From an uncultured Gemmatimonadales bacterium (GTDB lineage Bacteria > Gemmatimonadota > Gemmatimonadetes > Longimicrobiales > RSA9): 64,000 nucleotides of DNA. Under the pieces are notes generated by a model. It did no database searches. It was not told the DNA's origin and saw only the letters and a list, made by a program, of their open reading frames with translations. Position 1 is the first letter of the stretch; the number at the start of each line of letters is the position of its first letter. The stretch is taken from positions 224,001 to 288,000 of the forward strand of contig CAWAMW010000002.1 in assembly GCA_963783305.1 (NCBI GenBank), in the 5' to 3' direction. Made by a program: the position numbers and the translations under genes. Below are positions 2,796-35,761 of this stretch, piece after piece.

Positions 2796-4667
2796 TCAAC
2801 CCTCGATGTCGGTAAACTCCGATTCCTGCGCCGGCACCCACTCGCCCGCCGCCACGGCGGGTGGCGCGCCGCTGCCGTTCCGCACCGCGAACGCCACCAC
2901 GTCACCGGCGCGGAACCGCACGTTCTGGCCCACGGGAATTCCGCTGCCGTCCCGGACGACCACCAGCGGGATCGACGACGGTTTCGCCTTCTCGTCCACC
3001 GGCTCCTGCGAGCCGGCCCCCTCACCCGTCCCCCGCAGCCGCCAGTACTTCACCTCCGCCTGGCCGTGCCGGAGCGCATGGATCCAGTCCTCCACTTCCA
3101 GCGCCTGACCGAACAGGATCTCCACGCGCGATCCCTTCACCCGATCTCCGGTTACTCCCGAGCTCCCTCGCTCCAGCGCCGCCAGTGCCTCCGTGAGCCG
3201 ATACTCTTCCTTTCCCGTCCGGGCCAGCAGCACGTTGGCGCTCTCGTTCGGAGTCACGGCCGAGAGGCTGTGTCGACCCTCGATGTCCGCCCGCAACAGG
3301 ACCGATTCTTCGTTCGCGTTCCCGTAGATCACCCGGAGCCCCGCCCGCTCCGCATCGCTGGCCTCCGTTGAGTTCGAATCGATCACCACCACCTCCTCGC
3401 CCGCCGACTGGAGCGCGGTGGCGAGCGCGCGGCCCAGCGGGTTCGCGCCAATCACGATGTGGCCGACGTCCTTCCTGCGCCGGACCCCGAGGAGCGATGC
3501 CACCGGGCCGCTCGTGAACCCCTGAACCACCACCGTCACGGCGATCACCAGGAACACCAAGGCTCTGAACTCGGGGCCTATGTCGTAGCCGGCCGTGGTG
3601 AGGCGCTGGGCGAAGACCGAGGCCACGGCCGCCGCCACGATCCCGCGCGGACCCAGCCAGCCGATGAAGCCACGCTCCTTCCACGTCAGCTCCGAGCCCC
3701 ACGTGCTCACGGCCACCCCCAGCGGGCGGATGACGAACATGAGCGCCAACACTACCGCCAGCCCCTCCCAGCCCAACGCCGTGACCTCCTCCAGCCGGAC
3801 ATCCGCGGCCAGCAGCACGAAGAGCAGGCCGACCAGCAGCACGGTCATCTGCTCCTTGAACTCCCGCAGCTCACGCGAAATGGTCGTGCCGGAGTTGCCC
3901 ACCACGAACCCCGCCACGGCCGCCGCCAGGATCCCGCTCTCGGGCTGCAGCGAGTCGCTGACCTCGAAGACCACCAGCACCAGTGAGAGGGTGAAGACGT
4001 TTTCCAGCCCCTCCGGCACCAGCTTCCGGAACCGCAGGAGCACGGCGATCAGAGATCCGCCGATAAAGCCGACGGTCGCCCCCAGGAGCAGCCTTGAAGG
4101 GATCCCGAGGAGCCCCCGCGCCGCACCACCAAAGGTCTCCGACAACGCCAGCTCCAGCGCCACCACCGCCAGGATGGCGCCGATCGGATCGATCAGGACT
4201 CCCTCCGCCTCCAGGATCGTGGCCACGCCCTTCCGCACCCGGATCCGCCGGAGGAGCGGCGTGATGACCGTGGGGCCGGTGACGATGACGAGGGCTCCGA
4301 ACGTCACGGCAATCGGCCACGGCCAGTCCAGCGCCAGGCGCGCTATCGTGGCCGCACCCGCAGCGGTGATGACGGCGCCCACCGTGAGCAGCATCCGGAT
4401 CACCCGGGCCTCGCCGCGCACCCGGGTGATGTTGAGACTGAGGCCGCCTTCGAAGAGGATGACCGCCACGGACAGTCCCACCAGGATGTTGAGCCCCTCC
4501 CCCAGCGTCTCGGGACGTATCACGTTGGCCAGGTCCGGGCCCAGCACCGCTCCCAGCAGCAGCATCATGACGATTCCGGGCACCCGAAGGTGGCGGGCCG
4601 CCGATTGCGCAACGATCCCCGCCGCGAGGGCGAGGGTGAAGGTCAGTGCGGGATTGGTCAGATCCAC
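2796..4667 (-). CDS. CPA1 (NhaP-type) cation:proton antiporter with C-terminal TrkA-N/RCK domain
   Basis: About 12 TM segments; ILFEGGL, EGVLIDPIG, GPRGIVAAAVAS; HIVIGANPLGRALA Rossmann-like domain. Confidence 0.85.
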   Translation of the reverse strand: MDLTNPALTFTLALAAGIVAQSAARHLRVPGIVMMLLLGAVLGPDLANVIRPETLGEGLNILVGLSVAVILFEGGLSLNITRVRGEARVIRMLLTVGAVITAAGAATIARLALDWPWPIAVTFGALVIVTGPTVITPLLRRIRVRKGVATILEAEGVLIDPIGAILAVVALELALSETFGGAARGLLGIPSRLLLGATVGFIGGSLIAVLLRFRKLVPEGLENVFTLSLVLVVFEVSDSLQPESGILAAAVAGFVVGNSGTTISRELREFKEQMTVLLVGLLFVLLAADVRLEEVTALGWEGLAVVLALMFVIRPLGVAVSTWGSELTWKERGFIGWLGPRGIVAAAVASVFAQRLTTAGYDIGPEFRALVFLVIAVTVVVQGFTSGPVASLLGVRRRKDVGHIVIGANPLGRALATALQSAGEEVVVIDSNSTEASDAERAGLRVIYGNANEESVLLRADIEGRHSLSAVTPNESANVLLARTGKEEYRLTEALAALERGSSGVTGDRVKGSRVEILFGQALEVEDWIHALRHGQAEVKYWRLRGTGEGAGSQEPVDEKAKPSSIPLVVVRDGSGIPVGQNVRFRAGDVVAFAVRNGSGAPPAVAAGEWVPAQESEFTDIEG

Positions 4668-4790
4668 GCGGCGGCGACTTCGTTCAGGGTCATCAGGGCT
4701 CGCATCGTTGAGAACTGCATCGGGAGAAGGATCGCACGGATCCCGAGGAGGTGCAAAAATCGGACACCCGTCCGCGTGCGGCAGGAACCG

Positions 4791-6134
4791 CTAGTGGGAG
4801 ACGGGCGCCACCACGGACTGATATACGAGGCTGCGCAGCTTGCCGTGGTCGTCCAGGCCACCCGCCGGAATCAGCTGCGTCAGGTACACGACGACGAGCT
4901 CCTCCTCCGGATCGACCCAGTACACCGAGTGGTATGCGCCGCCCCAGCCGAACTCGCCCTGCGATCCCGGGACCCCGCGCGCACCCACATCCTCCACCAC
5001 GTAGAACCCGAGCCCGAACCCCTGACCTGGCCCGTAGTCGACCCCTCCCACATGGTCCACCGTCATCAGCTGGACGGTCTTGGGACTGAGGATCCGGACG
5101 CCATCCAGCTCACCGCCGTTCAGCAGCATCTGGAGGAAGCGGGCGTAGTCGGACGCCGTGGAGAGGAGCCCCGCGCCGCCTGAGTAGCTGGTCCTGGGGC
5201 CGTGCAGGTATGCGCCCTGACCCAGTCGCCCACCCCCACCCGGCGCACGCCGGACGTCGCCGTCGGGCGTCGCGGCGTACACCACTGCCAACCGATTCGA
5301 GTCGGACGGCGGCAGGTAGAAATGCGTGTCCCACATCTCGAGCGGCTCCAGGATCCGCACGCGCAGGAAGGCGTCCAGCGACTGCCCGCTCACCTCTTCG
5401 ATCACGGCGCCCAGGATGTCCGCGGAGTAGCCGTACACCCAGCGCTCACCCGGCTGCGCGTCGAACGGGAGCGCCGCCATTCGGGAGACGGTGGCCCGGA
5501 TCGGCTCATCCCGATCCGCGAAGTACCAGCCGGTGATCCCCGCGGCCTCCCATCGGTCCCCGGCCACACCGTAGCCGTACCCCACCCCGGAGGTGTGCGT
5601 GAGCAGGTCGCGGAGCGTGATCGGGCGCGCCGCCGGCTCGATGTCATACCCGCCGTCCTCGCGCGCCACCGCGACCGTGGTCTCGCGGAACTCCGGGAGG
5701 TATCGCGACACCGGGTCCGTGATCAGCAGCCGACCCTCCTCCTGGAGCATCATCACCCCCACGCTCACCAGCGCCTTCGTCTGCGAGGCGATGCGGAAGA
5801 TCGCGTCCTCGGGCATGACCGCCCGCGCCTCCCGATCGAGGTCCCCGAACGCCTCCAGATACGCCACCCGGCCGCCCCGGGCCACCAGCGCCACGCCACC
5901 CGCCAGTTTCCCGTCCTCCACGTAGCCATTCAGGACGCGCGTGAGCCGGCCCAGCCGCTCCGACGAAAGGCCGACCGCCTCCGGCTCCACCACGGGCAGC
6001 CCGGGCGCCGCGGCGGTCTGCCCGCCAAGCGATACCGGACCGGCCAGGGCCAGCGCCACGAGGAGAAGGGCGGACGCCGGAGCCGGGCCGGGGCGGCGGC
6101 CCCTTGGCGCCCTCGAGCACTCGGCTTCCCTCAT
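4791..6134 (-). CDS. Secreted serine hydrolase, beta-lactamase (class C-like) family
   Basis: Signal peptide; IFRIASQTK (SxxK), LLTHTSG, WVYGYS, GGAGLLSTASDY, FGWGG. Confidence 0.85.
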   Translation of the reverse strand: MREAECSRAPRGRRPGPAPASALLLVALALAGPVSLGGQTAAAPGLPVVEPEAVGLSSERLGRLTRVLNGYVEDGKLAGGVALVARGGRVAYLEAFGDLDREARAVMPEDAIFRIASQTKALVSVGVMMLQEEGRLLITDPVSRYLPEFRETTVAVAREDGGYDIEPAARPITLRDLLTHTSGVGYGYGVAGDRWEAAGITGWYFADRDEPIRATVSRMAALPFDAQPGERWVYGYSADILGAVIEEVSGQSLDAFLRVRILEPLEMWDTHFYLPPSDSNRLAVVYAATPDGDVRRAPGGGGRLGQGAYLHGPRTSYSGGAGLLSTASDYARFLQMLLNGGELDGVRILSPKTVQLMTVDHVGGVDYGPGQGFGLGFYVVEDVGARGVPGSQGEFGWGGAYHSVYWVDPEEELVVVYLTQLIPAGGLDDHGKLRSLVYQSVVAPVSH

Positions 6135-25114: not shown

Positions 25115-26220
25115 CCGGACCAGGTTCCATATTCCACTTTTGCACACTCCGACCCTTCTGAGGCCACGGGTCTGCGGAGCTCACCCAGGACAGGGCATGC
25201 GTAGGACGTTGGAGACGGCTTGGTCGCTGATCCGCAGGTAGCGCGCGATCGATGCGCCGCGATGACCGGCCGCCCGCATTCGCCGGATCATGATCCTCCG
25301 AACTGCAACGGCTTCGCGACCCTTGTAAGGGCTTCGCACCATCTCGAGGTGCAGGTGAGGCGCGTGTTCCGCCAGGGTCAGTCGCGCGAGATCGGCAATT
25401 TCGGCGCCTGCGCCACTCGTCCCGCTGCTCCCGTCTCGGCCAGGATCCACGCCGTCCCGGAACAAGGGGGCATAGTAGCGCGCCCAGCAGAGATCTCCTG
25501 CCGGCGCCGGCGGAGGAATGCTGGAACGGTCCGCGGCGGCGTTGTCCGCCTCCTGCTCCCCCTGCCGATCACACTGGAGGCGCCATTCTACGCGTGCCAG
25601 GTACGCGCTGCGCAACTCTTCTACGCCAGGGGACGAGGTCACGGCGAAGAGCCTCAGGGCATCCGCAATCTGCAATGCTCCCTTCACGCGCTCCGGAATG
25701 GCGGCTCGCCCCGCATAGAAGGCATGGGAGCTCCAGGGATACCCGGATGGGTTGTTGACGAGTCGAGCTCGAATCGGATTGAGGTGGACGTAAACTACCG
25801 CCGTGCGTACGTACTCCGGATCGAGGCAGACTCGGTGTCCATAGCGACGCTCGAAGACGTGGCCCTCGAGCCCATGGCTGCGCTGGACGAGAAGTGCGGT
25901 CCTGCGCAGGAATGGCTGCATGATACGGTCGAGCGGCCACTGCCCCTGGCGCAGCACCAGGTGGAGGTGGTTCGGCATGATCGCGAACGCCAGCAGCCTC
26001 CCATCCGAGTATCCGACGGCAGTAGCCATGTAGTCCATCACGCGATTGCGGAGAGTCGGCGTCAGCCACGGCTCCCTCCCCTGCATCCGGGCGGTGAGGT
26101 GGAAAACGGCGCCAGGCATGTGGGGTCTTCGTTTTCGTCCCATGACCCCGACAATGACGGTGGTATCGGGGCACCGGAATGGTGAAACCGGTCAGATATG
26201 GAATATGGAACCAGGTCCGG
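25115..26220. mobile_element. Putative RAYT/Y1 transposase element bounded by 22-bp inverted repeats
   Basis: CCGGACCAGGTTCCATATTCCA (25115-25136) and TGGAATATGGAACCAGGTCCGG (26199-26220), 1 mismatch. Confidence 0.7.
25181..26143 (-). CDS. REP-associated tyrosine transposase (Y1/HUH) with C-terminal HTH
   Basis: FHLTAR, IMPNHLHLV (HUH), VFERRY, YVHLNP, YPWSS; SIARYLRISDQAVSNVL HTH. Confidence 0.85.
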   Translation of the reverse strand: MGRKRRPHMPGAVFHLTARMQGREPWLTPTLRNRVMDYMATAVGYSDGRLLAFAIMPNHLHLVLRQGQWPLDRIMQPFLRRTALLVQRSHGLEGHVFERRYGHRVCLDPEYVRTAVVYVHLNPIRARLVNNPSGYPWSSHAFYAGRAAIPERVKGALQIADALRLFAVTSSPGVEELRSAYLARVEWRLQCDRQGEQEADNAAADRSSIPPPAPAGDLCWARYYAPLFRDGVDPGRDGSSGTSGAGAEIADLARLTLAEHAPHLHLEMVRSPYKGREAVAVRRIMIRRMRAAGHRGASIARYLRISDQAVSNVLRMPCPG

Positions 26221-28841: not shown

Positions 28842-30765
<1,924 letters not shown>

Positions 30766-30808
30766 CACCCCTGAGGCTATCGGAGCGGGGGTCTCCGGTC
30801 AAGATGGG

Positions 30809-30922: not shown

Positions 30923-30968
30923 GTCCCATCGAGCCATGGAGTCGCCCCGTACCTTGGATGATCCTGGG
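30923..30968 (+). promoter_or_regulatory. Conserved upstream motif copy 1 (peptide gene A)
   Basis: 33/46 ungapped identity to 33569-33614, including GTCCC, GCCAT, GCCCCGTACC and ATCnTGGG. Confidence 0.65.
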
Positions 30969-31011
30969 TTCGAAGGGTCGGCATGCGCCCAATCAAACCC
31001 AGGAGGTAGCT

Positions 31012-31218
31012 ATGACCAAGTTCATGATGGCAATGGCAGTCGGCGCAAGTGCGCTGGCGTTCGCCCCGCGGCCCGTGGCCGCGGCAGGATGCACGGATGA
31101 CTACCACAAGTGTCTGAACGACACCTGGTATTACACCGGAGTCTCTCAGACCATGGCCGATGTGGAGTGCTTCGCCTCGTACGCCGGGTGCGTGCGGGAC
31201 AAGTTCCTTCGCCAGTAA
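31012..31218 (+). CDS. Secreted twin-CX6C peptide A (68 aa)
   Basis: SD AGGAGG; Sec-type signal ending PVAA; C-x6-C-x18-C-x6-C; paralog at 33654. Confidence 0.85.
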   Translation: MTKFMMAMAVGASALAFAPRPVAAAGCTDDYHKCLNDTWYYTGVSQTMADVECFASYAGCVRDKFLRQ

Positions 31219-31242
31219 TCCTCTGATCGTGGAGTAAATCCC

Positions 31243-32262
31243 ATGCGCACGCCGATCCTTCTCCTCCTGCCGCTCTGCCTCGCCTGTGGTGAGGCCGCTG
31301 GTGCGGCTCCTGCGCTGATCAATGGGTTCCGCGAGCACGCGGCGCCCCTGGTCTGCGACCCGGTCGATCTCGGCATGGAGCCGGCGGCCACGGAGATCCG
31401 ACTGTCGTCGGACTCCACGTGGATACTGCTGGACGGGCCTCAGCTCCAGCTGCTCTCGTTCGACGACTCTTTCCGACTGCTCGACCGCACGCCCCTCCCG
31501 GCCACGGGACCCGGCGCGGCGGTGCACGCCGTGAGCGCGACCCTCCTCGGCGACACCGCAGTCGCGGTGGCGGCGCGGGGCGGGCTCCAGCTCGTCGTGT
31601 TGTCGCGCGATGGGTCCTTCCGCGCCAGCACGCCACTCGACTTCATTCCGAACGCGCTCGCGGGCACGCCCGCGGGCGAGATCCTGGTGACCCCGCTCCC
31701 GTTCGGGACCAAGCCACCCACCCTGCTCATGCGGTACTCCGGTGGGGAGTGGGAGACGCTGCCCGTGCCCCGGCGGTCATACGTGGACATGAGCATCAAC
31801 GCCCTCGGCAACTCGACCCTGGTGGAGGTGTTCCCGGATGGTCGGGCGCTGGTGATGCACCAGTTCCTGCGGCCGAGGGCGTTCATCGTTTCCCCCGACG
31901 GGGAGGTCGAGGAGCCGTCGGCACCCACGCCGGACGGGACCCGGGATCACGTGGATTTTGTTCCGAGCTCGCCGATCACGTCGGACCAGATGGAGCGGAC
32001 GCTCGTGCCGGCCATCGCACTGTCTATCGACCCACGCAGTTCCGAGGTGTACGTGATGACGCGGTCCGGCACCACAGTGGGCGGGCGTCCGGAGCGTGCG
32101 ATCCTGAGGCTGTCGGAGCGACTGGAATTCATCGAGGGCTTCACGCTTCCGATCCCCGCCGCGGGCATGGTCTACCTGCCGCGCCGCCACGGGGCGCTGG
32201 TCGTGGACGACGTGGACCGGTTCCACCTGTGCGCGTTCCCGCAGTCCGGTGGCCCGGCGTGA
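31243..32262 (+). CDS. Probable beta-propeller lipoprotein
   Basis: SD GGAG; LLLLPLCLAC lipobox-like leader; blade-like repeats (ALAGTPAGEILVT, VEVFPDGRALV, LSIDPRSSEVYV). Confidence 0.65.
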   Translation: MRTPILLLLPLCLACGEAAGAAPALINGFREHAAPLVCDPVDLGMEPAATEIRLSSDSTWILLDGPQLQLLSFDDSFRLLDRTPLPATGPGAAVHAVSATLLGDTAVAVAARGGLQLVVLSRDGSFRASTPLDFIPNALAGTPAGEILVTPLPFGTKPPTLLMRYSGGEWETLPVPRRSYVDMSINALGNSTLVEVFPDGRALVMHQFLRPRAFIVSPDGEVEEPSAPTPDGTRDHVDFVPSSPITSDQMERTLVPAIALSIDPRSSEVYVMTRSGTTVGGRPERAILRLSERLEFIEGFTLPIPAAGMVYLPRRHGALVVDDVDRFHLCAFPQSGGPA

Positions 32263-32864
32263 TCCGTCTCGAGAGCGTGACCGTGGCGCGCGGTGCCAAT
32301 CCGGTCGTCGAGGATCTCGACATGGACGTGGCGCCAGGACGCGTGTTCTGGGTCCTCGGTCCAAACGGCGCGGGGAAGACCAGCCTGCTTCGGGTCATTG
32401 CGGGTCTCGACTCGCCACGCCGGGGTCGGGTGATCCGTATGGGAGACCGGCTGCGCTACTTCCAGAGCGAGATGGCGCTCCCTCCAACGTCCACCGTCGG
32501 GAGCTGGGAGCGGCTGCTGCGGCGTCTCGCCCGCGGATCGGGCGCTGCTTCTCCAACGCCCCTCTGGCCCGATGTGAAGTCGCACAGAAGGATCGGCCGA
32601 CTCTCGACCGGTCAACGCAAGCGGCTGCTGCTGGACGCGATCCTGCGCCAACCGGGACCACTCGTGCTCGACGAGCCGTTCGAGCACCTCTCGCCGGACG
32701 CGAAGAGCGCACTGCGCGACCTGCTGCGCGACCGAGCCCGCCGGGAGGAAGTGGTCGTGGCCACCAACCAGCGCTCGTCGCTCTACCCGGAGATGGCCGG
32801 CGTGCACCTCGAAGGGGGCGTGGCCGCTCCGCTGAACGTCGCCCCCGACGCGTCCGGCTCGTGA
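32259..32864 (+). CDS. ABC transporter ATP-binding protein (atypical D- and H-loops)
   Basis: GTGA overlap; GPNGAGKT, LSTGQ, LVLDEP. Confidence 0.85.
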   Translation: MIRLESVTVARGANPVVEDLDMDVAPGRVFWVLGPNGAGKTSLLRVIAGLDSPRRGRVIRMGDRLRYFQSEMALPPTSTVGSWERLLRRLARGSGAASPTPLWPDVKSHRRIGRLSTGQRKRLLLDAILRQPGPLVLDEPFEHLSPDAKSALRDLLRDRARREEVVVATNQRSSLYPEMAGVHLEGGVAAPLNVAPDASGS

Positions 32865-33586
32865 TCCCGGGCGCCCGCGGACTCGGACGTGGCCTGTGGC
32901 TCGGGCGGTACACGGCCGCGGCCAACCTCGGCCGCTGGCTGACGCGCGGCGGCCTGATAGCGGGTGCCGGCGTCATGGCACTCGGGTGCGCGCTGTCTCT
33001 CCAGCGAGGGAGGGGCTGGACCTTCGACGCGGACATCGGGCTCATGGGCTTCTTCATCATGGCGCTCTTCGCGGCTCGATCCGGCCAGGAAGAGCAGCGA
33101 GAGCTCGGCCTCGACACGTTCCTCCGCCACAACCTCGTCTCGCCGGTGGAGCACGCGTTCGGGCTGCTGGTCGCCCTCGTCGCCACCTGGCTCACCGTCT
33201 GTGCCGCGGCCTTCCTCGCGATCCTGGCGGTGACCGCCGGCGACGTCGCGACGGCCGCGTGGTACACGACGGCGTGGGGTCTCAGACTCCTCGTCCTGCT
33301 CGGGTTCGTACCGCTCGTGGAGTCCATGGCCAGCCTCCGGCTCCCGCTGATCCTGCCGGTCTTTGCCTACTGGGGGTTGGCCATGGCCCTCGTGATCGCC
33401 CTGCCGGAGGACGACGCCATCGCGCTGTTCATCCCGGTAGAGCACGGGGACTGGGGCGCGCTCGCCCGACTCGCGCTGCAGGGAGTCCTCTCCTTCGCGG
33501 CCACCTCCTCGCTGTTCCTCGCACTGTCCGTGGCCGGATCCCGGCTCCGGCTGCGGCTCCAGCAAATGGTCCCGTTCCGCCATTGA
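32861..33586 (+). CDS. ABC-2-type-like membrane permease (about 6 TM)
   Basis: GTGA overlap with ATPase; six hydrophobic segments. Confidence 0.7.
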   Translation: MIPGARGLGRGLWLGRYTAAANLGRWLTRGGLIAGAGVMALGCALSLQRGRGWTFDADIGLMGFFIMALFAARSGQEEQRELGLDTFLRHNLVSPVEHAFGLLVALVATWLTVCAAAFLAILAVTAGDVATAAWYTTAWGLRLLVLLGFVPLVESMASLRLPLILPVFAYWGLAMALVIALPEDDAIALFIPVEHGDWGALARLALQGVLSFAATSSLFLALSVAGSRLRLRLQQMVPFRH

Positions 33587-33614
33587 GGTGCCCCGTACCC
33601 GGGGCAATCATGGG
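33569..33614 (+). promoter_or_regulatory. Conserved upstream motif copy 2 (peptide gene B)
   Basis: Matches 30923-30968; overlaps the permease stop codon. Confidence 0.65.
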
Positions 33615-33653
33615 GGTGAGTCGCGGGACACGGACCCATACCCGGAGGACATC

Positions 33654-33869
33654 ATGTGGACAGGGAAGCTGAGCGCGGTCTCTCTCATCTTCGGTCTGAC
33701 GCTTACTCTGCTGGCGGTGCCGGACACAGCCGCGGCGGCGGACTGCGGTGGCGGCTATATCGCGTGTCTGAACGACGCGGGCGCGATCGGCAGCTCCGAC
33801 GCGCTGCACGAGAGCGAGTGCTACGGCCGCTACTGGACCTGCGTCATGCGACAGATCCGGACGTACTGA
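33654..33869 (+). CDS. Secreted twin-CX6C peptide B (71 aa)
   Basis: SD GGAGG; signal ending TAAA; C-x6-C-x17-C-x6-C; shares YxxCLND and EC[FY]xxYxxCV with peptide A. Confidence 0.85.
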   Translation: MWTGKLSAVSLIFGLTLTLLAVPDTAAAADCGGGYIACLNDAGAIGSSDALHESECYGRYWTCVMRQIRTY

Positions 33870-35484
33870 GCCGGCCCGGATCGACGGGAGCGTGGCGGTC
33901 GGCCGTCGGCATGGCCGCCGCAGCCCGCTCAGCGAGCGCGGTGATCGTGAGCGATGGGTTTACGCCCGGGTTGGCGGAAACCGCCGACCCATCGATGACA
34001 TAGAGCCCCGGGTAATTCCAGACCTGGTGGGACGCATCGATGACTCCGGACTCCGGCCCATCTCCCATAACGCAGCCGCCGAGGATGTGTGCGGTCGTGG
34101 GGATGCCGGTGAGCGTCTCCGTGACGAAGCTCACCGGGTAGCCGCCGGTCAGCTCGGCCACCTGCTCACCCAGCGCCGTGGCCGCCGGAATGGACGCCCG
34201 GGGTGCCGACCCGCGGGAGACGCGGGTCGTGAGCCCGCCCCGGCCCCTGCGGGCGCGGGTGGTCAGCCGGAGGTGGCTGTCATCCGTGCTCATGTAGAGG
34301 AGGATCAGCGTGTGCCGGGCCCAGTCGCGCACCAGCCACGCACGGGCGGTGCGGACGGGATGGCGCAGAACTCTTTTCGTGGCCGCGGCCAGCCTCTGCC
34401 GGAGCGTGTCGCCCGGGGCGTGGGGCGCCTGGAGCAGGCGCAGCACTCCGGAGCCCGCTGGGTAGCGGACGGGCTCCAGCGTCGAGCCATCGTGGGCCAT
34501 GATGGACGTGATGGCGACGCCCTCGGACATATCGCGGTCCGGGGCCACGATCCCCATGAGGACCTCGGAATTGGTCCGCACGAACTCCCCCAGGCGCGGG
34601 GAGAGGTCTGGCAGCCCATCGGATTCCGAACGCATGCGAAGCAGGAGCGGCACCGTGCCGAGCACACCGGCGGACAGCACCACGTTCCTGGCCTGATAGA
34701 TCCGACTGGAACGGCGCCAGGGTCGTGGCCCCTCCCGCACCTCGACGGTGTACCTGTGCGGACCAATGGCTGTGCTTCCGCGCTCGGTTCCGCCGCGGCG
34801 CACCGCCGTCACCTCGGTCTGCGTACGGACCTCCAGCCCCTGACGCTCAGCCAGCCAGAGGTAGTTGCGGTCCAGTGTGTTCTTGGCGCCGTGGCGACAC
34901 CCAACCATGCACCCGCCGCAGTGGGTGCAGCCGGTCCGGGCGGGGCCGCCCCCATCGAAATAGGGATCGGGCACCGTCTCATCCGGCTCTCCAAAATGGA
35001 CGCCGACCGTAGTGGGCACGTGCTCCGACTCGAGTCCCCGTGACCGCGCCACCTGGCGGAGGAGCGTGTCGGCATACGAGTCGAAGGGGACCCGCGCGGC
35101 GCCCAGCATACGGAGGGCTGTGTCGTAGTGGGGGCTCAGCTCGTGTTCCCAGTCGCCGAGGTGTCCCCAGGATGGTGCACGAAAGAAGGCATCTCCCGGG
35201 CGCTGGAGCACCCCCGCATAGACCAGGGAGCCACCTCCCAGCCCCACCCCTGACAGAGCGGTGATGTGCCGCAGGAAGGTCATCCGGAACGGCCCCCGCA
35301 GGCCGAGCGTCGGGAGCCAGAACCATCGGCGAAGATTCCAGGTGCTCTTCGCGAAGTCCCCCGGGGCGTACCGCCGCCCCTGCTCGAGGAGCAGGACGCG
35401 GTGCCCCTTCTCCACGAGCCGGAGCGCGGCGACGCTTCCGCCGAACCCGGAGCCCACGATGATGTAGTCCCAGTCCGTTCGCAT
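33844..35484 (-). CDS. GMC family oxidoreductase (cholesterol oxidase ChoD-like)
   Basis: IVGSGFGGSVAALRL, GGGSLVY, CTHCGGCMVGC, TAHILGG, GVNPSLTITALAERA. Confidence 0.9.
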   Translation of the reverse strand: MRTDWDYIIVGSGFGGSVAALRLVEKGHRVLLLEQGRRYAPGDFAKSTWNLRRWFWLPTLGLRGPFRMTFLRHITALSGVGLGGGSLVYAGVLQRPGDAFFRAPSWGHLGDWEHELSPHYDTALRMLGAARVPFDSYADTLLRQVARSRGLESEHVPTTVGVHFGEPDETVPDPYFDGGGPARTGCTHCGGCMVGCRHGAKNTLDRNYLWLAERQGLEVRTQTEVTAVRRGGTERGSTAIGPHRYTVEVREGPRPWRRSSRIYQARNVVLSAGVLGTVPLLLRMRSESDGLPDLSPRLGEFVRTNSEVLMGIVAPDRDMSEGVAITSIMAHDGSTLEPVRYPAGSGVLRLLQAPHAPGDTLRQRLAAATKRVLRHPVRTARAWLVRDWARHTLILLYMSTDDSHLRLTTRARRGRGGLTTRVSRGSAPRASIPAATALGEQVAELTGGYPVSFVTETLTGIPTTAHILGGCVMGDGPESGVIDASHQVWNYPGLYVIDGSAVSANPGVNPSLTITALAERAAAAMPTADRHAPVDPGRLSTSGSVA

Positions 35485-35761
35485 TGGCGGACGCTTCCGG
35501 CTTTGAAGGTGGGTGGGGGCTGCGGAGGACGGCCGTCGCGGCACCCGGGTGTACCTCATAATACGACCGCCGGCTCCGCTCACGCGACCTTCGCGATTCC
35601 TCCACAGGTGATCAATGCGCGTCCGGGGGCAACCGAGAGCGTGGCAGAACGAACGGACACGGCGTTAGCTTGCGTATCAGGCCGTTTCGGACGGGGAAAC
35701 GATTCTGCGGCTCGCTCCGTCTAAGAGGTGGGCATCGGATGACACCAGGGGGGCTGGGATC

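Follow-up and report, generated by a model that had tools for sequence, protein, structure and literature searches.

The 64,000-nucleotide stretch analyzed here (the window; positions 224,001 to 288,000 of contig CAWAMW010000002.1, GenBank assembly GCA_963783305.1) comes from an uncultured bacterium of the Longimicrobiales, phylum Gemmatimonadota. It carries, at 30923–33869, a locus for two small cysteine-rich peptides of secreted type, a propeller lipoprotein and a transporter of the ATP-binding cassette (ABC) type. All five open reading frames (ORFs) proposed in an initial annotation are confirmed on the plus strand, in the order peptide 1 (31012..31218, 68 amino acids), a lipoprotein predicted to form a six-bladed NHL-type beta-propeller (31243..32262, 339 amino acids), a short ABC ATPase with Walker A/B and signature motifs (32259..32864, 201 amino acids), a divergent ABC-2-like permease (32861..33586, 241 amino acids) and peptide 2 (33654..33869, 71 amino acids), the gene starts being those of our own simple caller. 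As that annotation described, the two small genes, each with a GGAGG ribosome site, bracket three genes coupled by GTGA overlaps (lipoprotein/ATPase/permease). The operon content is peptide, propeller, ATPase, and permease only, and the guanine-plus-cytosine (GC) content of the locus equals the genome average. The annotated start at 30923 is the first base of a feature that the annotation itself had missed: a motif, GTCCC-N5-GCYAT-N6-GCCCC(G), that lies about 90 nucleotides upstream of both peptide genes. Copy 1 (30923..30949, +; 29.4 bits, rank 8 among 3788 called genes) is kept before orthologous peptide genes, and copy 2 (33569..33595, +; 35.0 bits, rank 2 of 3788) overlaps the last permease codons; each is followed at a fixed offset by a predicted −10 element (nAnnnT at 30960..30965, +; and 33606..33611, +). 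The motif is predicted to be an activator or sigma-factor site covering about −49 to −23 of a promoter, and copy 2 is the predicted promoter of peptide 2 itself.

The two peptides align at 35% identity over 51 amino acids (E 2e-7), and the mature sequences of 43–44 residues and the shared consensus first quoted for them (C-x3-Y-x2-CLND-x13/14-EC[FY]-x2-Y-x2-CV) hold. Peptide 1 combines a Sec-type leader with a predicted 44-residue mature part that has an acidic core and a basic-hydrophobic tail; peptide 2 joins a leader of the same type to a predicted 43-residue twin-CX6C hairpin. In a collection of 52 peptides the four cysteines are invariant (52/52), the acidic core recurs in 51 and the basic tail in 46. 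The six frames of the 4.35-Mb genome contain 29 CX6C...CX6C matches close to the end of an ORF; judged by eye, peptides 1 and 2 are the only convincing small secreted-type ORFs among them. Their leaders are hydrophobic and Sec-like, in keeping with the annotation, and a simple charge/hydrophobicity rule recognizes signal peptides in 32 of 32 precursors; export by the twin-arginine translocation (Tat) pathway was rejected, a twin arginine being present in only 3 of 32 leaders.

An AlphaFold2 model of the mature peptide as a monomer (predicted local distance difference test, pLDDT, 88.8) places helices at residues 2–16 and 20–43, which agrees with the proposed helical hairpin. The proposed display of a variable loop did not survive: the modeled turn comprises residues 17–19 only, with the remainder of the supposed loop lying in helix, mostly helix 2, and G19 (33/43), L/M24, A25 (30/43), and E28 (41/43) are conserved across 43 propeller-adjacent peptides, as are N12 (41/43) and G35 (38/43). 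The description of the central loop as completely divergent fits the pair of paralogs and fails for orthologs; identity over the last 10 inter-cysteine residues is 0.64 and 0.74 within paralog classes and 0.10 between them, for hand-picked sets of 15 and 7 that include near-duplicates. At the sequence level, the difference between the two peptides of this locus marks two paralog classes: one present at nearly every locus (peptide 1) and a minor one with an SSDxLHE segment (peptide 2). A separate long-loop clade (L054, L101, L102, and L104) has 26 residues between the inner cysteines and lacks both the motif and the usual ABC pair. Fold searches with the peptide returned generic hairpins only, and the best match (a plant vicilin-buried peptide, Z 6.7) lies within the chance range. 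CHCH hairpins are defined by CX9C spacing; a CHCH (twin-CX9C) identity was rejected, as the spacing is CX6C in 52 of 52 peptides and the match to Mdm35 is non-significant (E 0.12). In Acidobacteriota clusters, atlas look-alikes of the peptide score 0.88–0.90, which is a lead only.

The lipoprotein is the constant partner of the peptide, and its model is a six-bladed propeller (pLDDT 92.8; predicted template modeling score 0.90), in line with the annotated beta-propeller. Its closest folds are NHL domains (Brat NHL, Z 24.5, root-mean-square deviation 3.5, 263 aligned), and Bacteroides BVU_1028 (DUF4221) aligns at Z 21.4 (deviation 3.4, 295 aligned); its language-model neighbors are DUF5128 and TolB_like (0.94). 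The fold is common to NHL, DUF5128, TolB_like, and DUF4221 propeller lipoproteins, but Pfam membership is not: the DUF5128, TolB_like, and NHL hidden Markov models gave no above-cut-off match for the propeller, and one of 71 family members matches NHL and one PQQ_2 at E ≤ 0.01. The lipobox cysteine is kept in 88% of 40 relatives, and C38 and C330 are invariant. N190 (98%) and H206 (90%) are also conserved and, by our reading of the secondary structure, would sit on the top face of the propeller; no full metal or catalytic residue set is conserved in the family.

The ATPase matches ABC_tran families only and has no C39 domain, consistent with the annotated absence of a C39 peptidase. The permease has 29 relatives at E ≤ 0.001, and weak, below-cut-off ABC2_membrane matches occur in 2 of 23 relatives; its sequence suggests a remote ABC-2 type. 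Among the locus proteins only the ATPase is named by Pfam and NCBIfam. Searches of Pfam, NCBIfam, and PADLOC gave no match for the peptides, propeller, or permease except one sub-threshold match to CesT.

The genomes compared are mostly draft assemblies and related to one another, and the counts given here are not independent. Among 401 genomes of the order, strong matches to the propeller profile (at least 154 bits) occur in 39—26 in the same family as the genome studied here and 13 in a second family—and the next match scores 44 bits, a gap (≥154 versus ≤44 bits) that sets this propeller family apart from other propellers of the order. A mature-peptide profile matches 40 of the 401 genomes: the same 39 and one more (G503), whose partial match within a 587-amino-acid frame was dropped from the co-occurrence. 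Peptide and propeller co-occur one-to-one, in the same 39 of 401 genomes, with a peptide profile that was built from these loci and could therefore miss divergent orphan peptides. The relatives are labeled Gemmatimonadota, Longimicrobiales, and a sample drawn from across the phylum has matches in 5 of 401 genomes, all within the same two families. Within its own family the module is accessory, propeller relatives being present in 26 of 73 genomes (this one included), and added peptide paralogs carry promoters of their own.

The search that the initial annotation had proposed, for peptides beside relatives' ABC/propeller loci, found a peptide gene directly before the propeller gene in 42 of 44 fetched stretches; the other two lack one because their cut contigs begin inside the propeller. 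A two-peptide system is not the general arrangement that had been suggested. A single peptide is present in 35 of the 42 peptide-bearing stretches, some of them short, and two or three in 7 of the 44, five of which are flanked on both sides as here. The ABC transporter stands as a frequent partner (ATPase in 40 of 44 stretches, permease in 37) but is not obligatory, since both subunits are missing from three intact loci, all of one genus; because of these three, the smallest unit is peptide plus lipoprotein. The other ABC-incomplete stretches comprise one with a different ABC pair upstream and two cut by contig ends, and in one further stretch a second propeller is present and nothing matched the permease.

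Hints of a broader architecture, in which small secreted proteins are paired with propeller lipoproteins, come from more distant propellers. Under one filter, 5 of 19 such loci have an unrelated small signal-peptide, cysteine-containing ORF close by, and under a second filter 4 of 19 have one directly upstream; none of these small ORFs at the 19 sampled loci matches the twin-CX6C family. Small secreted cysteine-containing proteins precede distant propeller lipoproteins at L274, L279, L284, L285, L273, and L275, with two 95-amino-acid paralogs in tandem at L274 and a similar Ser/Thr/Gly-rich protein at L285.

The upstream motif extends well beyond the peptide genes. With training confined to 24 sites ahead of peptide genes in relatives, a matrix gave 32 matches in the genome studied here versus 5 in its reversed counterpart, including sites before comF-like, radC, recQ, and pilin genes. 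A refined matrix, partly circular because it was trained on sites of this same genome, gave 32 sites of at least 20 bits versus none in the reversed genome. At 20 of 30 sites the A and T of nAnnnT stand at one and the same offset, compared with 0–2 of 30 at neighboring offsets, and a start codon falls at +50/+51 in 14 of 30; together these positions would fit promoters of partly leaderless genes. Sites of at least 12 bits precede 38 of 50 peptides (versus 0 of 50 reversed). Across the family, the pattern occurs in 69 of 73 genomes, with 665 matches versus 10 for the reversed pattern, and the regulon is present without the peptide module in G012, G033, and G038.

Thirty-six of the 42 ORFs downstream of motif sites were scanned with Pfam/NCBIfam, six judged non-coding or low-scoring being omitted. 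The targets that received a name include ComM/YifB, a ComF-like protein, SSB, RadC, UPF0102 (presumably YraN), a PilB/GspE-like ATPase, two RecQ-like helicases, and RecX; four AbiEi/DUF559 proteins, three four-helix-bundle proteins, an integrase, and a methylase; and two IS1595-like transposases, one REP-type transposase, and several DUFs. A minor-pilin cluster, a pilin-like run whose first gene scores below the N_methyl cut-off and in which the label FimT is our own, has a site at its head, and a site of 15.7 bits stands ahead of the gene that precedes comEC. In five other genomes, three of them without the peptide module, 33 of 54 motif-downstream ORFs have a homolog here; the pilin-cluster head, comF, yraN, ssb, radC, recX, recQ, and the PilB-like gene recur. 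The Haemophilus competence regulon comprises pil genes, rec2, comM, radC, and ssb (PMC1635313). The gene content is similar to that of the gamma-proteobacterial Sxy/CRP-S regulon (PMC1635313), with a recombination-repair flavor added and a motif of different sequence. The motif looks like the mark of an undescribed competence/recombination regulon, and the peptide module is quite probably co-regulated with DNA-uptake and recombination genes; because the motif is common to such genes, the peptides are likely made during DNA uptake.

Transposase, DUF559, and four-helix-bundle genes repeatedly bear the motif and may be hitch-hiking on the regulon. A third copy in the window, at 26195 (−; 21.6 bits), lies 52 nucleotides before a gene (25181–26143, −) that resembles REP-associated tyrosine transposases. 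Elsewhere the motif is tandemly repeated with 66-nucleotide spacing (L227–L229, G033:C1:4909228-4909451), and four identical copies in G033 precede four near-identical long ORFs.

A pafB–pafC pair lies between two motif-bearing genes in the genome studied here, and mycobacterial PafBC promoters pair a conserved element at about −26 with a −10 in fixed position and lack a canonical −35 (PMC8635444; the layout is given also in PMC7617703). The layout of these DNA-damage promoters is similar to that of the motif promoters, but the sequence differs: tGTCgg-N10-tAnnnT is not found, the same place reading GCCCCG and a GTC triplet lying two helical turns further upstream. Our query detected PafB in 47 of 66 family genomes (draft assemblies) but not in G012 (97% complete, 6 contigs) or G038, which hold 7 and 13 motif sites; a WYL protein appears in only 6 of 20 further module-bearing genomes, chosen partly for having no earlier match. 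PafBC is an attractive candidate for the regulator, against which stands the occurrence of the motif in genomes where PafB was not found. The pair itself (L112:3130-4230 and 4557-5576; G000:C12) is an occurrence of pafB–pafC outside the Actinobacteria, with a lysine in the PafB recognition helix at the position of M. smegmatis R46; across the order, PafB relatives turn up in 71 of 201 genomes, the unpublished G493 being part of the tally.

Within a single lineage, 11 loci have a gene for a sensorless sigma-54 activator immediately upstream of the module, and 10 have one for a POT peptide transporter nearby; of the 9 intergenic regions listed from activator-linked loci, 6 contain a sigma-54-like site ahead of the peptide. 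The activator (L040–L046, L048, L049, L052, and L106) consists of AAA+ and helix-turn-helix domains only, with GAFTGA intact in 11 of 11. It bears the motif upstream, also in G038, which has no peptide module, and is possibly a second tier of the regulon. Sigma-70-family proteins number 22.

Our preferred interpretation, to which we assign a probability of roughly 0.4 for the whole chain including killing, is that the module encodes a competence-induced antagonistic peptide with lipoprotein/ABC self-protection. An activator or sigma factor would fire the motif promoters during competence or DNA stress, and Sec would export the peptide, which would then form a hairpin held by two disulfides. 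The lipoprotein would bind it on the conserved top face; released peptide would damage module-free cells and so free their DNA, as streptococcal competence-induced bacteriocins do, while the lipoprotein and transporter would protect the producer. Antagonism is favored because secreted peptides of late competence are typically bacteriocins with co-encoded immunity, and a lipoprotein with an ABC transporter is an immunity layout. Competence and neighbor predation are described as co-regulated (review, PMC12378983), and cibABC and radC both belong to the pneumococcal ComX regulon (PMC6560143). CibABC is a parallel in its small exported peptides with co-encoded protection in a late-competence regulon, the regulon and the killing being predictions for the module here; no sequence relation is expected. 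The accessory status of the module, the presence of the regulon without it, the minimal peptide–lipoprotein unit, and the added paralogs with promoters of their own also speak for this reading. This locus differs in its Sec-type leaders, four cysteines, propeller lipoprotein, ABC-2 pair, and diderm phylum, and mostly has one peptide (35 of 42 stretches) where CibABC comprises two complementary ones.

Two further peptide systems resemble the locus in part. Glycocins (glycocin F, sublancin, thermoglycocin) are, like the peptides here, short, helical, and four-cysteine, and have twin-CX6C spacing. They form a helix-loop-helix with two nested disulfides (PMC12139839). They use a C39 transporter, thioredoxins, and a double-glycine leader, none of which belongs to this operon, which has a partner lipoprotein instead; no glycosyltransferase was found in the operon or among the recurring neighbor families scanned (singletons left out). 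A glycocin identity was rejected on the missing glycosyltransferase and C39 peptidase transporter and the Sec-like leaders. LanI/LanFEG lantibiotic immunity has a lipoprotein-plus-ABC layout (PMC4234265), with lipoprotein, ABC ATPase, and ABC-2-like permease beside a peptide gene, as here. This locus differs in having no lanthipeptide enzymes, one permease, no H-loop histidine, and a propeller as its lipoprotein. A lantibiotic cluster was rejected by the features tested.

Several observations weigh against antagonism with self-protection. Net charge is negative in 43 of 50 mature peptides, which are thus not cationic. Mean pairwise identity across 32 complete loci is 34% for the peptide without its cysteines, 33% for the propeller, 44% for the ATPase, and 27% for the permease, so that the peptide diverges no faster than the propeller. 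Neighborhoods are genus-stable, and 13 pattern matches for the peptide on viral contigs yielded no confirmed case. Given the propeller-like rate, stable neighborhoods, average GC content, and lack of a viral match, there is no arms-race signature; a horizontal island was likewise rejected on GC content and genus-stable neighborhoods. The H-loop histidine of the ATPase, required for NisFEG immunity (PMC4234265), is replaced by asparagine in the protein of this locus and in 33 of 35 readable relatives (it is kept in 2 of 35, and 2 of 37 rows are unreadable), and the module encodes no outer-membrane exit route. On the regulatory side, 12 of 50 peptides, the long-loop clade among them, have no site of at least 12 bits; in the genome studied here, no site was found immediately ahead of dprA, comEA, or the major pilins; and the score for a recA-like gene, recognized by eye, is only 9.3 bits. 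Transposases and nucleases make up many of the targets, and the regulon could therefore be a DNA-stress response of a broader kind. Real room for rival explanations comes from the peptides' acidity and slow evolution, the stable inheritance, and the absent histidine.

A tentative alternative keeps a Gemmatimonadota competence regulon in its own right and takes the module for a new competence-induced extracellular device that is not a bacteriocin. This device would consist, again tentatively, of a disulfide-stapled hairpin acting as subunit or signal, an NHL-propeller lipoprotein as its partner, and a His-less ABC transporter, and it might be one family within a larger class in which propeller lipoproteins have small secreted disulfide proteins as partners. 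Another reading, possible although unlikely, makes the peptide an exported structural subunit (class 1 major, classes 2 and 3 minor) of a competence-associated surface or periplasmic assembly, with the lipoprotein as chaperone or anchor and the His-less ABC as a release or gating device instead of a pump. The conserved surface residues N12, E28, and G35 and the small residues along helix 2 would suit such an assembly, as would the strong ribosome sites, the one promoter per paralog, the conservation of each paralog class, and the motif common to the minor-pilin cluster and the PilB-like ATPase. Distant propellers, too, are preceded by unrelated small secreted cysteine proteins, once as a tandem pair. 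However, the regulon lacks the module in two thirds of family genomes, the ABC is absent at three loci, the peptide model is that of a monomer only, and the fact that we know of no precedent for such a structural subunit in DNA uptake also counts against it.

Improbable, in our estimation, is a competence pheromone that the regulon would induce and that, once sensed via the lipoprotein/ABC pair, would feed back on the regulator. In its favor, the peptide is small and non-cationic, its secretion is likely, and its control by the regulon is predicted; the upstream sigma-54 activator (11 loci) and nearby POT transporter (10) could belong to such a circuit, and a His-less ABC could signal instead of pumping. 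Yet the motif and its targets exist without the peptide (69 versus 26 of 73 genomes), there is no linked kinase or receptor, the genes that the motif marks are of late type, and the links to the activator and POT occur in one lineage only and may reflect inherited gene order. Most doubtful is a propeller acting as an extracytoplasmic maturase on a modified-peptide precursor of other function, for although the precursor-first pairing is strict, NHL-type propellers include peptide-acting enzymes (PAL, Z 20.4; virginiamycin B lyase), and N190 and H206 are conserved on what we read as the top face, no full metal or catalytic set is conserved and the best fold matches are non-enzymatic NHL domains.

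Gemmatimonadota are widespread, poorly studied, and known mostly from assembled genomes. The locus is a conserved module for whose peptide, lipoprotein, and permease we found no family model or description, in agreement with the annotated lack of a named family. Open-access full text, the scope of our literature search (subscription journals lay outside it), yielded no description of the propeller family, of Gemmatimonadota competence, or of such peptides, and the excerpts of PMC11316326 make no mention of competence, pili, or transformation. The motif provides a concrete, testable definition of a likely competence/recombination program across the family (69 of 73 genomes), and a possible route to inducing conditions and genetic tools. 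Competence-linked peptide warfare or signaling is known mainly from streptococci; the peptide module would extend it to a diderm phylum with unrelated parts. The peptide, as modeled, would be a new small disulfide-rich scaffold, and the module is among the first functional leads for the many uncharacterized six-bladed propeller lipoproteins of Gemmatimonadota.

Two neighboring features complete the surroundings of the locus. A thiamine pyrophosphate (TPP) riboswitch (30667–30769, −; Rfam, 66.5 bits) lies ahead of a gene that we take to be thiC-like (28842–30605, −), divergent from the peptide operon. A thiamine link was rejected, since thiC and the riboswitch are divergent and such neighbors amount to only 6 genes in 5 loci. 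On the other side, a gene presumably encoding a GMC/cholesterol-oxidase-like protein (33844–35583, −) converges on peptide 2, and it also adjoins the module in two relatives.

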